DNA from: Candidatus Binatus sp.
GTDB lineage: Bacteria > Desulfobacterota > Binatia > Binatales > Binataceae
Direction: 5' to 3'
NCBI RefSeq assembly: GCF_049584895.1
Contig: NZ_JBAUYR010000086.1
Location: 69,625 to 133,624, forward strand
DNA: 64,000 bases
The notes under the pieces are model-generated. The model searched no databases, was not told the origin of the DNA, and saw only the letters and a program-made list of their open reading frames with translations. The position numbers were made by a program, and so were the translations under genes. Positions 47,126 to 54,045 of the stretch are shown here, piece after piece (position 1 is the stretch's first letter; every line of letters begins with the position of its first letter).

Positions 47126-47998
47126 ATGAGGCTCCCCGACGTTATCGGAATCGGGCCCCCGCGGACCGGCTCGACCTGGCTCTACAACGCTCTCCGCGAC
47201 TCGGTGGATATGCCCGCGGGAGTCAAAGAGCCGCAGTTTTTCAGTACGTTCTACGACAAAGGCATCGATTGGTACGCGCACCACTTTCGATACGCGACTG
47301 GGCGCCGTCCGATAGCTGAAATATCTCCGCCGTATTTTTTTCATCCGGAGACGCCCGCCCGCATCAAGACTCACATTCCGAAATGCAAGATTGTCGCGAC
47401 CATGCGCAATCCCGTCGACCGCATTTACTCCGCGTACAAGCTCATGCGCCATTACGGATGGGTGCGTCGCGGAACTCTCGACGAGGTCCTGCAATCCAGT
47501 CCAAATCTCGGCGGCGGTAACCGTTATGCCGCGCACCTAAAGGTGTGGTTCGACAACTTTGGCCGCGAGAACGTCCTGGTCACGATGTACGATGAATTGC
47601 GCGACCAACCGCAAGTCTATCTCAATCGCGTCTGCGACTTCATCAGCGTCCCGCGCATCGCGCTCGCGCCGCGCCCGGATCTCAGTGGCGACGTGAACTC
47701 TTTTGCTCGCGCACCCAGGGATCGCCGACTCGCAGTCAACGCAACCAAACTGATGTACTGGCTCAAGGGCCATCAGGCGTATGGCCTCGTCAACGCGCTC
47801 GAACGCGTCGGAGTGTGGGATTTCTGCGGCGGTCGCGGTGAACCGTATCTGCGTCTCACGATCGAACAGGAGGAACGCCTGCGCGAGCGCTATCTGCCCG
47901 AAGTCGAGGCGTTGGAAGAATTGCTCGGGATCGATCTCTCCGCATGGAAAAAACCTCGCGCGGCCGAACGCCCCGCTCATAGGCTAGCCGTCGGATGA
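47126..47998 (+). CDS. sulfotransferase family protein (paralogue 1)
   Basis: 5'-PSB loop GPPRTGSTWL and 3'-PB region RNPVDRIYSAY. Confidence 0.8.
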   Translation: MRLPDVIGIGPPRTGSTWLYNALRDSVDMPAGVKEPQFFSTFYDKGIDWYAHHFRYATGRRPIAEISPPYFFHPETPARIKTHIPKCKIVATMRNPVDRIYSAYKLMRHYGWVRRGTLDEVLQSSPNLGGGNRYAAHLKVWFDNFGRENVLVTMYDELRDQPQVYLNRVCDFISVPRIALAPRPDLSGDVNSFARAPRDRRLAVNATKLMYWLKGHQAYGLVNALERVGVWDFCGGRGEPYLRLTIEQEERLRERYLPEVEALEELLGIDLSAWKKPRAAERPAHRLAVG

Positions 47999-48852
47999 TT
48001 CGCCGCCTTCCAGAAATAATCGGCGCTGGTCCCGGCCGCACGGGCACCACATGGTTGCATCGCGTGCTCGAGGCCCGCGTCGATCTGCCATACGGCGTCA
48101 AGGAGACGCAGTTCTTCAACACGTTCTACGACAAGGGCATCGACTGGTACGCGCATCACTTTCGCTACGCCACCGGCAATCGGAAAATCGCGGAAATCTG
48201 TCCGTACTTTTTTCATCCGCTCGCGCCCGAACGGATCAAGACCCACATTCCGAATTGCCGCATTATCACAACGCTGCGCGATCCAGTCGATCACGCTTTC
48301 TCGGCCTACAAGCTGGTCGTTCATTTTGCGTGGGCGCACGGATCGTTCGACGAGGTTCTGAAATCGCGGCCCAATCTGGGCAGCGGAAATCGTTACGCGT
48401 CGCATCTCAAGACCTGGTTCGACTTGTTCGGCCGCGAGAATGTTCTGGTCACGATGTATGACGAACTGCGCGCGCAGCCGCAGTCGTATCTCGACCGCGT
48501 GACCGACTTCATGGGCGTCGAGCGCATCGCACTTTCAGCGCGTCCGGAAATCGGCGACGATGTACATTCGTTTGCGCGCGCTCCCAAGAGCCGCAGACTC
48601 GCTCGCAGCGCGCGGAAGATGATGTACCGCCTGCAGAGTCATCAGGCGTACGGCGCGATCGACCTGCTCGAGCGAGCGGGCGTGTGGGATTACTGTTACG
48701 GACGCGGCGAGCCTTTTGGCCGTCTGACGTCCGAACAGGAACAGCGCCTGCGTGACCGCTACCTGCCCGAGGTCGAGGCGCTCGAGGAATTGCTCCGCAT
48801 AGATCTCTCAGCATGGAAGAAGCCGCAGCTGCGGCGCGCAACGGTTGCGTAA
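47995..48852 (+). CDS. sulfotransferase family protein (paralogue 2)
   Basis: GPGRTGTTWL, RDPVDHAFSAY. Long identical blocks with paralogue 1 (FYDKGIDWYAHHFRYATG, GRENVLVTMYDELR, YLPEVEALEELL). ATGA overlap with the upstream stop. Confidence 0.8.
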   Translation: MIRRLPEIIGAGPGRTGTTWLHRVLEARVDLPYGVKETQFFNTFYDKGIDWYAHHFRYATGNRKIAEICPYFFHPLAPERIKTHIPNCRIITTLRDPVDHAFSAYKLVVHFAWAHGSFDEVLKSRPNLGSGNRYASHLKTWFDLFGRENVLVTMYDELRAQPQSYLDRVTDFMGVERIALSARPEIGDDVHSFARAPKSRRLARSARKMMYRLQSHQAYGAIDLLERAGVWDYCYGRGEPFGRLTSEQEQRLRDRYLPEVEALEELLRIDLSAWKKPQLRRATVA

Positions 48853-48856
48853 GTCG

Positions 48857-51789: not shown

Positions 51790-53034
51790 TTACCGGGCGC
51801 GGGAGATTTGCGCTTTTGGTTTTGGCTCGGGCTCTGCTTCGACTTCCTTCGCGGATATCGATCCGTAGCCGATTGCATTGCTGGTGTTGCGCCAGTTTAC
51901 CAGGGCGGCGATGCGATCTTTTTTTACGCGATGTTTGTAGTGCTCGACCTTGTCGAGGACTGAGTCGATCAGGGTGTCTGATAACAGGCGCGGCTTGAGG
52001 CCCAGGTCGATCAGCTTCGTATGCTTGGCGTTGTAGTAATGGACCTCGGCTTCTACGCGTGGGTCTGCGATGTGTTGGATTTCGACATTGCGGCCTTTGT
52101 GCTTTGCCGCGGCCTGGATTAGGTCGGCTAGTTGGCCCACCGAAAACTGTTCGGTGAACTGGTTGAAGACTCTGTATTCGCCTGGCTTGGCCGGTTTCTC
52201 GATTGCGATTTCAATACATCGCATGGTGTCGCGGATGTTCAGGTAGCCGCGGGTTTGGCCGCCCTTGCCGTGAACCGTCAGCGGATGGCCGATGGCGGCC
52301 TCGATACAGAAACGGTTCAGGACGGTGCCCCAGATTCCGTCGTAGTCGAAACGCGTCGCGAGCCTCTCATCGAGCATCGTCTCGTCAGTTTCGATTCCGT
52401 AGACGACGCCCTGGTTGAGATCGGTCGCGCGGATGCCCCAGATTTTGCACGCGAAGTGGATGTTGTGCGAGTCGTGGACTTTGGACAGGTGATAGAACGA
52501 GCCGGGCTGTTTCGGATACGGCAGAGTGTCGGTGCGGCCGTTGTGCGTGATCTCGATAAAGCCCTCTTCGATATCGATGTTGGGCGTTCCGTACTCGCCC
52601 ATCGTGCCGAGCTTGACCAGGTGGCATTCGGGGACGTGCTCGCGAATCGCGTAGACGGCGTTGAGCGTGCCGACGAGATTGTTGACCTGGGTGAGAACCG
52701 AATGTCGCCGATCGATCATCGAAAATGGCGCACTGCGCTGCTCGCCGTAATGCACGATCGCGTCGGGCTTGAAGTCGCGTACCACGCCGCTGATGAATGC
52801 GTAATCGGTCAGATCGCCGACTGCGATTTGAATCGACTTGCCGGTCGTCTCGCGCCACGCCGCGACGCGGTCATGCAGCGGCGCGATCGGAATCAGGCTT
52901 TCGGTGCCGCCTTCGAGGTCCCACAGCCTGCGGCTGAAGTTGTCGACCACGCATACTTCGTAGCCGCGCTTTGACAGGTACATCGCCTGCGGCCACCCGA
53001 GATATCCGTCCCCACCAGTTACAATCACCCGCAT
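51790..53034 (-). CDS. sqdB: UDP-sulfoquinovose synthase (SQD1/SqdB-type extended SDR)
   Basis: [60 protein letters not shown] are all hallmark SQD1 blocks. ATG 53034 follows GGAGG. Confidence 0.85.
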
Positions 53035-53082
53035 TGAAAATGCCTCCACCGTGAAAAAGCGAATCAGCGATTCGCCGTCTAT

Positions 53083-54045
53083 TTATTCCTGATATGCGCG
53101 ATCAGATCGAGTGCGCCGCGAGCTTCCGCCGGACAGACTTTGCGCGATGCGGTGCGGCAGCCACGTGCGCATCCAGCGCAAATAGTTTTTGAGCCGATAC
53201 GGATCGACCTTGATAGCGCGCGCGAATGCGGCTCGCGCACGAGGACGGTCGCCGTCGCGCATCGCCTTGAGGCCAATCGTCGCGAGGATGCTTCGCGGCG
53301 CTCGCGCGCGCGCATCCACCAGCGGCGCGGCAGAAACGCCGTAGCGCTCCTGCAGATACGCCTCGAAAACGTGCAGCGCTTTCGAATAGTCGGGCAGGCG
53401 CTTGAGCTGTTTGGGGAACCATGCGAAGCGCCACGTGATCAGCGGCTCGTCGATATATCCGAACGGCCCCTGCTCGCGCATCTTGATCCAGAAATCTACG
53501 TCCTCGAACCGAAAGCTGGCGCCCTTCAACGCGTCGCGATAACCGCCGCACGTGTCGTAAGAGGAGCGGCGGACGAGAGCAGCGCTCGGCATTATCGGCC
53601 ACAGTTGCGTCAGCAGTTCGTTCAGTGAGGGGGCATGATCGAAGCCGCTGCCGACCAGGGACGTGTCGAGCGCAACGCCCTCGCTGTCGGCGAGTGCGCA
53701 GTTGCAATAGACGAGCGAGAGCGCAGGGTCGGCATCGAGCGCCGCCACGCTGCGCTCGAGGAATTGCGGCGTCCAGATGTCGTCGGCGTCGAGGAAGGCG
53801 AGATACTCGCCGGAAGAATTGCGTGCGCCGTTGTTGCGCGCCGCGGCCGGTCCGCTGTTGCCTTGCTCAATCAACCGCACGCGTTCGGCATAGTGCTTGA
53901 CGATCGGGATGGTGCCATCAGTGGAGCCGTCATCGACGCAGATGATTTCCAAATCCTGGAAAGTTTGCTCGAGGACGCTGTCGACGGTGCCGGCGATGGT
54001 CGCGGCGGCATTGTAGGCAGGGATGATTACAGAAACGCGAGGCAC
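53083..54045 (-). CDS. family 2 glycosyltransferase (paralogue 3)
   Basis: VSVIIPAYNAA, DDGSTDGT, FLDADDIW. Upstream of sqdB in the same operon. Confidence 0.85.
   Translation of the reverse strand: MPRVSVIIPAYNAAATIAGTVDSVLEQTFQDLEIICVDDGSTDGTIPIVKHYAERVRLIEQGNSGPAAARNNGARNSSGEYLAFLDADDIWTPQFLERSVAALDADPALSLVYCNCALADSEGVALDTSLVGSGFDHAPSLNELLTQLWPIMPSAALVRRSSYDTCGGYRDALKGASFRFEDVDFWIKMREQGPFGYIDEPLITWRFAWFPKQLKRLPDYSKALHVFEAYLQERYGVSAAPLVDARARAPRSILATIGLKAMRDGDRPRARAAFARAIKVDPYRLKNYLRWMRTWLPHRIAQSLSGGSSRRTRSDRAYQE

Follow-up and report, generated by a model that had tools for sequence, protein, structure and literature searches.

A variable sulfotransferase, glycosyltransferase and SqdB island in Candidatus Binatus that may build a sulfated, sulfoquinovose-bearing glycan

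Seven intact genes fill positions 47126-54045 of a 64-kb stretch of a Candidatus Binatus (Binatota) genome (contig NZ_JBAUYR010000086.1; the whole stretch is called the window here). Three 3'-phosphoadenosine-5'-phosphosulfate (PAPS)-type sulfotransferases (ST1, ST2 and ST3) lie in tandem on the plus strand and are followed by two family-2 glycosyltransferases (GT2a and GT2b), while a minus-strand pair consisting of a third family-2 glycosyltransferase (GT2c) and a UDP-sulfoquinovose synthase of the SqdB/SQD1 type converges on GT2b (Table 1). From the identities of these enzymes and a comparison of related loci, we consider it somewhat probable that the island is a hypervariable cytoplasmic glycan-tailoring locus that makes a sulfated, sulfoquinovose-bearing envelope glycan. 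The Binataceae are abundant, uncultured and apparently non-phototrophic bacteria of soil and peat. A preliminary description of the same DNA had read these genes as a pathway for a sulfated, sulfoquinovose-containing glycoconjugate. Its gene boundaries and layout, with the third GT2 operonic with SqdB on the opposite strand, agree with our gene map; the SqdB and sulfotransferase identities, the co-conservation of the genes that it called for, the GT2 as partner of SqdB and the missing export genes also stand, but the "3+3 symmetry" that it saw between sulfotransferases and glycosyltransferases does not.

A search of PDB sequences matched SqdB to Arabidopsis SQD1 (1qrr, 1i24) with 590 bits (E = 1.8e-176) over 383 aligned residues (6-388), at an identity of about 68% as read off the alignment, and the next PDB family reached only 40 bits. 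The catalytic residues listed for SQD1, including Thr145, Tyr182 and Lys186 (YxxxK) and His183 (PMC4388408), are all conserved (T145, Y182, H183 and K186), and the segments KLGTMGEYG and FYHLSK align column for column. The protein also has the GxxGxxG NAD-binding motif and equivalents of His95, Arg101, Glu147 and Tyr148 (GTMGEYG), which are essential in the archaeal enzyme Agl3, and its close homologues carry the JGI label UDP-sulfoquinovose synthase. By these measures SqdB is a genuine SQD1-type UDP-sulfoquinovose synthase of the extended short-chain dehydrogenase/reductase class and not a UDP-glucose 4-epimerase.

All three glycosyltransferases score far above the Pfam Glycos_transf_2 cutoff of 23.3 bits (GT2a 129, GT2b 111 and GT2c 132 bits), and GT2b has a weak Glyco_transf_21 match as well. 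Identity to GT2a is 49% for GT2b and 38% for GT2c. The three enzymes have in common their N-terminal catalytic blocks and a helical C-terminal tail, as had been described, and Pfam TPR matches on these tails are sub-threshold only. The DxD motifs of the set read DDD (GT2a), DHD and DAD, and the ED motif (E181-D182) is invariant. The AlphaFold2 model of GT2c (pLDDT 89) has a GT-A core and a bundle of 4-5 helices at residues 223-304, and Foldseek matched it to 6p61, K4CP and SpsA with E values of 1e-16 to 1e-18. The structures closest to it belong to soluble glycan- or polymer-extending enzymes, namely a Leptospira glycosyltransferase, K4CP, SpsA, WrtF, a PglI-like enzyme and TarS/TarP. We rejected a role for GT2c as a polyprenyl-phosphate sugar synthase (ArnC/GtrB/DPMS-like), given that the protein has no transmembrane helices, that the ArnC model scores only 24 bits and that such synthases are absent from the 50 fold matches listed. 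Two membrane proteins in one related locus (L059, below), one of them with a weak PMT_2 match, leave some room for this role.

GT2c is strictly linked to SqdB. We scanned one genome per species for GT2c, which gave 40 loci (cited by L numbers where they must be told apart) onto which the window proteins were then mapped, and we built a tree of 102 GT2 sequences with SH-aLRT support. Every SqdB-adjacent GT2 of these genomes falls into one clade with GT2c (31 sequences, SH-aLRT 100), and three unlabelled members of the clade lie on broken or truncated contigs. The GT2a clade (28 sequences) and the GT2b clade (25 sequences) are both separate from it. In 28 GT2c-clade loci from separate species-level genomes, GT2c and SqdB are 23-110 bp apart and the pair moves together. 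Moreover, the signature GGYRDxL[KR]GASFRFED is invariant in the GT2c clade only, and unique to this clade are also two invariant arginines next to the catalytic ED motif, R170 and R179, and an insertion of two residues there. Because GT2c forms a clade of its own, stays beside SqdB when the pair moves and carries clade-specific arginines, it is likely a sulfoquinovosyltransferase, and R170 and R179 are candidate ligands for the C6-sulfonate of the sugar. Classical sulfoquinovosyl diacylglycerol (SQDG) has an alpha linkage, set by a retaining GT4 or GT8. GT2 enzymes invert, so that UDP-alpha-sulfoquinovose and GT2c would give a beta-sulfoquinovoside, not alpha-SQDG, which makes GT2c a candidate beta-sulfoquinovosyltransferase. 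The observation that SqdB is partnered by a GT2 rather than a GT4 or GT8 extends from the window to the related loci; SqdX/SQD2 (GT4) and SqdD (GT8) enzymes were found neither among the window open reading frames (ORFs) nor adjoining SqdB in about 33 loci.

The sulfotransferases all match Pfam Sulfotransfer_1 and Sulfotransfer_3. ST1 and ST2 share 70% identity and long stretches without a single difference, in keeping with their earlier description as near-duplicates in a tandem array with both cofactor-binding motifs, and ST1 and ST3 are 48% identical. In ST1 the 5'-phosphosulfate-binding (PSB) loop reads GIGPPRTGSTW, the base motif KEPQFF and the 3'-phosphate-binding (3'-PB) motif RNPVDRIYSAY; the consensus forms are GxGPxR[TS]G[TS]TW, in which Arg replaces the usual Lys, and R[ND]PV[DE][RH]xxSxY. 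The base motifs KEPQFF, KETQFF and KETDFF align with EEIQFF of NDST1, placing their Glu in the position of NDST1 Glu642 and 3-OST-1 Glu90. Four cofactor-binding and catalytic residues (R15, E37, R95 and S103) are invariant in 28 sulfotransferase homologues down to 42% identity, which answers the earlier question of whether catalytic residues are retained. At the catalytic-base position, at least 84 of 100 sulfotransferase copies from related loci have Glu, and 13 have Asp. The Asp occurs in ST1-type paralogues of many species, in the motif KDTHFF with a His as in KEVHFF of the 3-OSTs (for example L012:17023-17889 and L013:17323-18204).

Structural comparison leads to the same family. The best PDB sequence matches of ST2 are 3rnl, then NDST1 and the heparan sulfate 3-OSTs, and with the AlphaFold2 model of ST2 (pLDDT 89.1) as query, Foldseek ranks 1-21 are taken by 3rnl, 3-OST-1/3/5 and NDST1 at TM-scores of 0.63-0.67. 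Other sulfotransferase classes (cytosolic SULT, TPST and the polyketide enzyme CurM) stand at about 0.4 and in no case above 0.49. On sequence and modelled fold, ST1-3 belong to the heparan sulfate NDST/3-OST branch of PAPS sulfotransferases, with binding and catalytic residues kept. With NDST/3-OST and 3rnl, an Alicyclobacillus sulfotransferase of uncharacterised function, they have in common the fold, the PSB loop, the 3'-PB motif and a catalytic Glu in a K-E-x-x-F-F context. They differ from NDST/3-OST in the Arg that replaces Lys in the PSB loop, as it does in tyrosylprotein sulfotransferases, and in being bacterial and predicted to be cytoplasmic. A family-specific C-terminal helix ending in DLSAWKKP is also present in 3rnl.

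About 30 species-level Binataceae genomes share the synteny of this locus, and the sulfotransferase/GT2 array adjoins the GT2c-SqdB pair in 26 of 29 informative species-level loci, so that the genes are co-conserved across the Binataceae, a check that the preliminary description had proposed. The common order is a sigma-54 activator, GT2c and SqdB, then the convergent GT2b, GT2a and sulfotransferases, in most cases a 4-aminobutyrate (GABA) transaminase, and after these an orphan gene (unk294) and a pair of chromate-transporter genes. Within this frame the copy number ranges between species from 2 to 5 sulfotransferases and from 0 to 3 GT2a/b genes, and a SAM methyltransferase or a GT4 is inserted in some loci. 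Because copy numbers differ in this way, the "3+3" arrangement is one state of a variable island and not a conserved symmetry. Sulfotransferase and GT2 copies turn over rapidly from one species to the next, the mark of a surface-diversity hotspot, and regions of this kind typically evolve under phage or predator pressure. Two contigs of one bin (L011 and L032, MFD03346.bin.1.66) carry near-identical whole islands, probably reflecting strain heterogeneity in the bin.

The block consists of two separable modules, a GT2c-SqdB core and a sulfotransferase/GT2 array. In three loci (L038, L040 and L057) the GT2c-SqdB pair stands alone among unrelated genes, and L025, where the pair has left its array behind, may count as a fourth such case. 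Two other loci bring the modules together in new surroundings. In L058, which comes from a more distant relative and has an SqdB 74% identical to that of the window, genes for ATP sulfurylase, APS kinase, two GT2s and SqdB are followed by a convergent sulfotransferase (L058:3995-10171) in a different neighbourhood; the APS kinase and sulfotransferase genes are each split by a frameshift, which may reflect either decay or errors in long-read assembly. L059 has SqdB and four GT2s between a Rieske gene and genes for VIT1 and a Kdo-family kinase, and the same slot holds ST-GT2-GT4-ST islands in L051 and L056. Because L058 clusters both modules with PAPS synthesis, and because SqdB and the GT2s of L059 fill the slot of a sulfotransferase island, we infer that the two modules are linked in function.

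From these identities a series of steps may be proposed. SqdB would make UDP-alpha-sulfoquinovose from UDP-glucose and sulfite, and GT2c, its operon partner and an inverting GT-A enzyme, would move the sulfoquinovose in beta linkage onto a saccharide acceptor. GT2a and GT2b would add further sugars, and ST1-3 would O- or N-sulfate the chain with PAPS. The resulting glycan would be short, free of phosphorus and strongly anionic, and genes elsewhere would make and export the acceptor that carries it. None of the seven proteins has a hydrophobic stretch long enough for a transmembrane segment; with all of them predicted soluble or peripheral, these reactions would occur on the cytoplasmic side of the membrane. 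The window ORFs scanned include no flippase, polymerase or exporter, in line with the preliminary description, and no chain-length regulator or initiating phosphoglycosyltransferase; apart from the L059 membrane proteins, nothing recognisable of these kinds was seen in about 35 loci read. Cytoplasmic enzymes with carrier and export genes missing fit a scheme in which general machinery handles the acceptor and the island decorates it step by step.

The acceptor that we weakly favour is an LPS-core-like or other lipid-anchored glycan, and a glycolipid or a protein is also possible. The most likely form would be a lipid-anchored envelope glycoconjugate of the lipopolysaccharide (LPS)-core or lipooligosaccharide (LOS) type. 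Saccharides or polymers are the acceptors of the enzymes nearest to GT2c in fold, which suggests a saccharide rather than diacylglycerol. An acceptor of LPS-core type is hinted at by sister lineages, in which one island runs straight into lptD (38 bp gap) and others (L051, L056 and L059) lie beside a Kdo/WaaP-family kinase. The SqdB/GT2 island of L059 is also flanked by two multi-pass membrane proteins (L059:3278-4783 and L059:10220-11644, with 9 and 7 hydrophobic segments), both with a similar N-terminal ...LRF..LG....S.DE...W motif and one with a weak PMT_2 (GT-C) match (E = 0.003), which may be periplasmic transferases for a lipid-linked sugar. No LPS genes (waaA/C/F, Kdo or heptose kinase, lpt or msbA) were found in the window, and that the acceptor is specifically LPS seems doubtful to us. 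More speculative still is the proposal that the Binataceae LOS/LPS core owes its charge to beta-sulfoquinovose and several O-sulfates instead of phosphate, with the GT2c clade as the first known GT2 sulfoquinovosyltransferases and R170/R179 reading the C6-sulfonate; we offer it tentatively, as a rather improbable one. A hopanoid, which the preliminary description had listed among possible acceptors, is not retained, the sole support for it being a hopanoid cluster 35 kb from the island (window 4666-13974) to which we saw no link. That cluster comprises a radical SAM gene with DUF3463 (HpnH-like), a polyprenyl synthase, squalene-hopene cyclase, DXP reductoisomerase, two SQS_PSY genes (HpnC/D-like) and an amine-oxidase-type HpnE-like gene.

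Several observations weigh against a sulfated, sulfoquinovose-bearing envelope glycan as the product of one coupled locus. With respect to the enzymes, SqdB scores 499.6 on NCBIfam NF041015, below the cutoff of 575, in an end-to-end alignment (1-383 of 384), and the proteins most closely related to GT2c, at about 55% identity, function without SqdB, for which reason its donor specificity is put forward here as likely and no more. With respect to the acceptor, the NCBIfam scores for KdkA/RfaP and LptD lie far under their cutoffs, and these contexts come from sister lineages and not from this locus. With respect to coupling, one genome has its GT2c-SqdB pair (L025) 500 kb from a sulfotransferase array left at the original site (L050), and sulfotransferase islands without SqdB exist (L009 and L051-56). 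Finally, an element resembling a sigma-70-type -35/-10 pair, CGTTGAGC-N14-CGTGTAAC, lies 60-90 bp upstream of GT2c across loci; it is present in 14 of the 18 loci scanned, in the same place, once per locus and nowhere else. Placed in this way it may be a promoter of GT2c, and a common promoter for both modules was accordingly rejected.

The points on coupling, together with the loci in which GT2c-SqdB stands alone, are what would be expected if the modules were independent and only synteny neighbours, the pair making a beta-linked, phosphate-sparing sulfoquinovosyl glycolipid and the array an unrelated sulfated glycan. A glycolipid would also agree with the basic, amphipathic tails of the GT2s, which are suited to membrane association, and with a GT28/MGDG-synthase-like glycosyltransferase gene in the window (30330-31646). 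Yet in L058 the GT2-GT2-SqdB genes have, in new surroundings, a sulfotransferase and PAPS-synthesis genes clustered with them, the SqdB and GT2s of L059 occupy the variable slot of sister sulfotransferase/GT2/GT4 islands, and the structural neighbours of GT2c extend glycans and are not lipid or polyprenyl-phosphate glycosyltransferases. We therefore regard independent modules as unlikely.

A coupled island could also act on protein, with the GT2s glycosylating a surface or secreted protein through their TPR-like tails, as GT2-TPR enzymes such as Listeria GmaR do, and the sulfotransferases sulfating the protein-bound glycan. The sub-threshold TPR matches, the helical bundle in the GT2c model and the presence of GmaR among the PDB sequence matches (1.8e-5) point this way, and cytoplasmic enzymes with missing lipid-carrier genes are compatible with it. 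Still, the tail has only about 80 residues and matches no TPR model at threshold, the GmaR match is confined to the catalytic domain, and no candidate target protein is conserved beside the island, so we consider protein glycosylation quite unlikely. It is less likely again that SqdB feeds ordinary alpha-SQDG through an SqdX/SQD2- or SqdD-type enzyme encoded elsewhere, with GT2c an unrelated neighbour: SqdB is very close to plant SQD1, which is an SQDG-pathway enzyme, but the tight and mobile pairing of SqdB with GT2c argues otherwise, no GT4 or GT8 was found in the window, and an inverting GT2c cannot make the alpha linkage. A role in tailoring some secreted small compound, for instance a natural product or signal that bears sugar and sulfate, would suit a locus of tailoring enzymes only (sulfotransferases, glycosyltransferases and sometimes methyltransferases) with rapidly changing gene content, but it is highly improbable, as no polyketide synthase, nonribosomal peptide synthetase, terpene synthase or precursor of a ribosomally synthesized and modified peptide lies in or adjoins the island in about 35 loci and the sulfotransferases are closest to polysaccharide sulfotransferases.

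The envelope glycan that we favour would share only parts of its synthesis with known systems. SQDG biosynthesis, whether by SQD1/SqdB with SQD2/SqdX (GT4) or by SqdB with SqdD (GT8) and SqdC, begins with the same enzyme. Here, in contrast, the partner of SqdB is an inverting GT2, so that the linkage would be beta, and up to five PAPS sulfotransferases accompany SqdB, whereas the SQDG pathways are without any. The N-glycan pathway of Sulfolobus acidocaldarius (Agl3) likewise uses UDP-sulfoquinovose for a glycan and not a lipid, and in that N-glycan the sulfoquinovose is beta-linked. That system differs in being archaeal, in its dolichol carrier, in attachment by an oligosaccharyltransferase and in having no sulfotransferases; Agl3 is only about 40% identical to SQD1, and to our knowledge the archaeal sulfoquinovosyltransferase has not been identified. 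Cytoplasmic PAPS-dependent sulfotransferases clustered with glycosyltransferases are known from the LpsS-sulfated LPS and NodH-sulfated Nod factor of Sinorhizobium and from the xss cluster of Synechocystis (synechan). In gene content the Binatus island resembles these systems, which make sulfated surface glycans with one or two sulfotransferases and no sulfoquinovose; the xss cluster has Wzx/Wzy-type polymerisation and export genes of which none was found in the Binatus island. Our literature search found nothing that joins Binatota with sulfotransferases or sqdB with a GT2, nor any report in which an SQD1-type synthase is combined with a dedicated GT2 and several heparan-sulfate-like sulfotransferases.

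Few pools of organic sulfur are as large as that of sulfoquinovose, nearly all of which is thought to originate in the SQDG of phototrophs. The SqdB-GT2 pair, conserved in a soil phylum of wide distribution, would indicate a different product, one that is beta-linked, glycan-bound and further sulfated. If our reading holds, GT2c would represent a new sulfoquinovosyltransferase family, from a type of enzyme hitherto unlinked to sulfoquinovose, and its product, on the more speculative LOS/LPS-core proposal, a new class of bacterial sulfoquinovose glycoconjugate. Such a glycan would give bacteria a phosphorus-free means of making the envelope anionic, and would be an unrecognised soil source of sulfoquinovose for sulfoglycolytic microbes.

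Table 1. Genes and other features of the island and its immediate neighbours (window coordinates).
Feature	Position	Strand	Basis
4-Aminobutyrate transaminase	45809..47092	+	TIGR00700 597.7 vs cutoff 506.65
ST1, PAPS-type carbohydrate sulfotransferase, 290 aa	47126..47998	+	Pfam Sulfotransfer_1 4.9e-20, Sulfotransfer_3
ST2, PAPS-type carbohydrate sulfotransferase, 285 aa	47995..48852	+	Pfam match; PDB hits; AlphaFold2 model
ST3, PAPS-type carbohydrate sulfotransferase, 301 aa	48857..49762	+	Pfam match; KETDFF base motif
GT2a, soluble inverting family-2 glycosyltransferase with helical C-terminal tail, 309 aa	49769..50698	+	Pfam Glycos_transf_2 1.9e-37
GT2b, soluble family-2 glycosyltransferase, 309 aa	50709..51638	+	Pfam Glycos_transf_2 5.6e-32
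SqdB/SQD1-type UDP-sulfoquinovose synthase, 414 aa	51790..53034	-	SQD1 similarity and catalytic residues
GT2c, SqdB-linked GT2, candidate beta-sulfoquinovosyltransferase, 320 aa	53083..54045	-	Pfam Glycos_transf_2 2.4e-38
Promoter-like element CGTTGAGC-N14-CGTGTAAC upstream of GT2c	54081..54110	-	Conserved position across loci
Sigma-54 activator without sensor domain	54201..55385	-	Pfam Sigma54_activat 3.1e-63, HTH_8

Within the island, the stops and starts of ST1, ST2 and ST3 overlap or abut. ST3 has an alternative start at a TTG at 48845, which would give 305 aa, and the ATG start listed in Table 1 agrees with the gene call at the equivalent position in a public assembly. SqdB starts at an ATG behind a GGAGG Shine-Dalgarno sequence, with 48 bp separating the gene from the GT2c stop. 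A short frame that begins ATG-AAA-TAT-GGC (window 47112-47128) immediately precedes the ST1 start, and some other species have it joined to ST1 as one frame (MKYGLMRLPD...); here it is off by one base, and ST1 therefore starts at MRLPD, as in several other species. Three antisense ORFs, at 48509-49675 (-), 52132-52974 (+) and 54051-55202 (+), were dismissed as shadow ORFs of high-G+C DNA.

The sigma-54 activator adjoins GT2c in most loci and is separated or absent in several. Control by sigma-54 was considered and rejected: a window scan for TGGCAC-N5-TTGC gave fewer matches than shuffled sequence and none upstream of either operon, and an alignment of 14 intergenic regions revealed no conserved GG/GC sigma-54 pair. 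As the conserved element upstream of GT2c looks sigma-70-like, control of GT2c by the neighbouring activator is unsupported. A scan for terminator and promoter consensus sequences gave counts no higher than chance.

On the other side of the island, the GABA transaminase gene ends 33 bp upstream of ST1 and is probably co-transcribed with it without being a member of the pathway. A role as a sugar aminotransferase was rejected, as the protein passes the GABA transaminase equivalog cutoff, and the gene is missing between unk294 and the sulfotransferase array in L007, L009, L028 and others. The divergent unk294 gene (44747-45706, minus strand) encodes an orphan protein of about 294 aa with no match in Pfam, NCBIfam or the PDB; it is conserved beside the sulfotransferase array in nearly all loci and heads an operon with two short chromate-transporter genes. 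Beyond the sigma-54 activator, a tRNA-Lys(UUU) gene (57105-57178), a glyoxalase-like ORF and a phage-type integrase (57787-58776) come in succession and together look like a small integrated element (57105-58776). This element parts the activator from an NTP_transf_5 gene that is its neighbour in other genomes.

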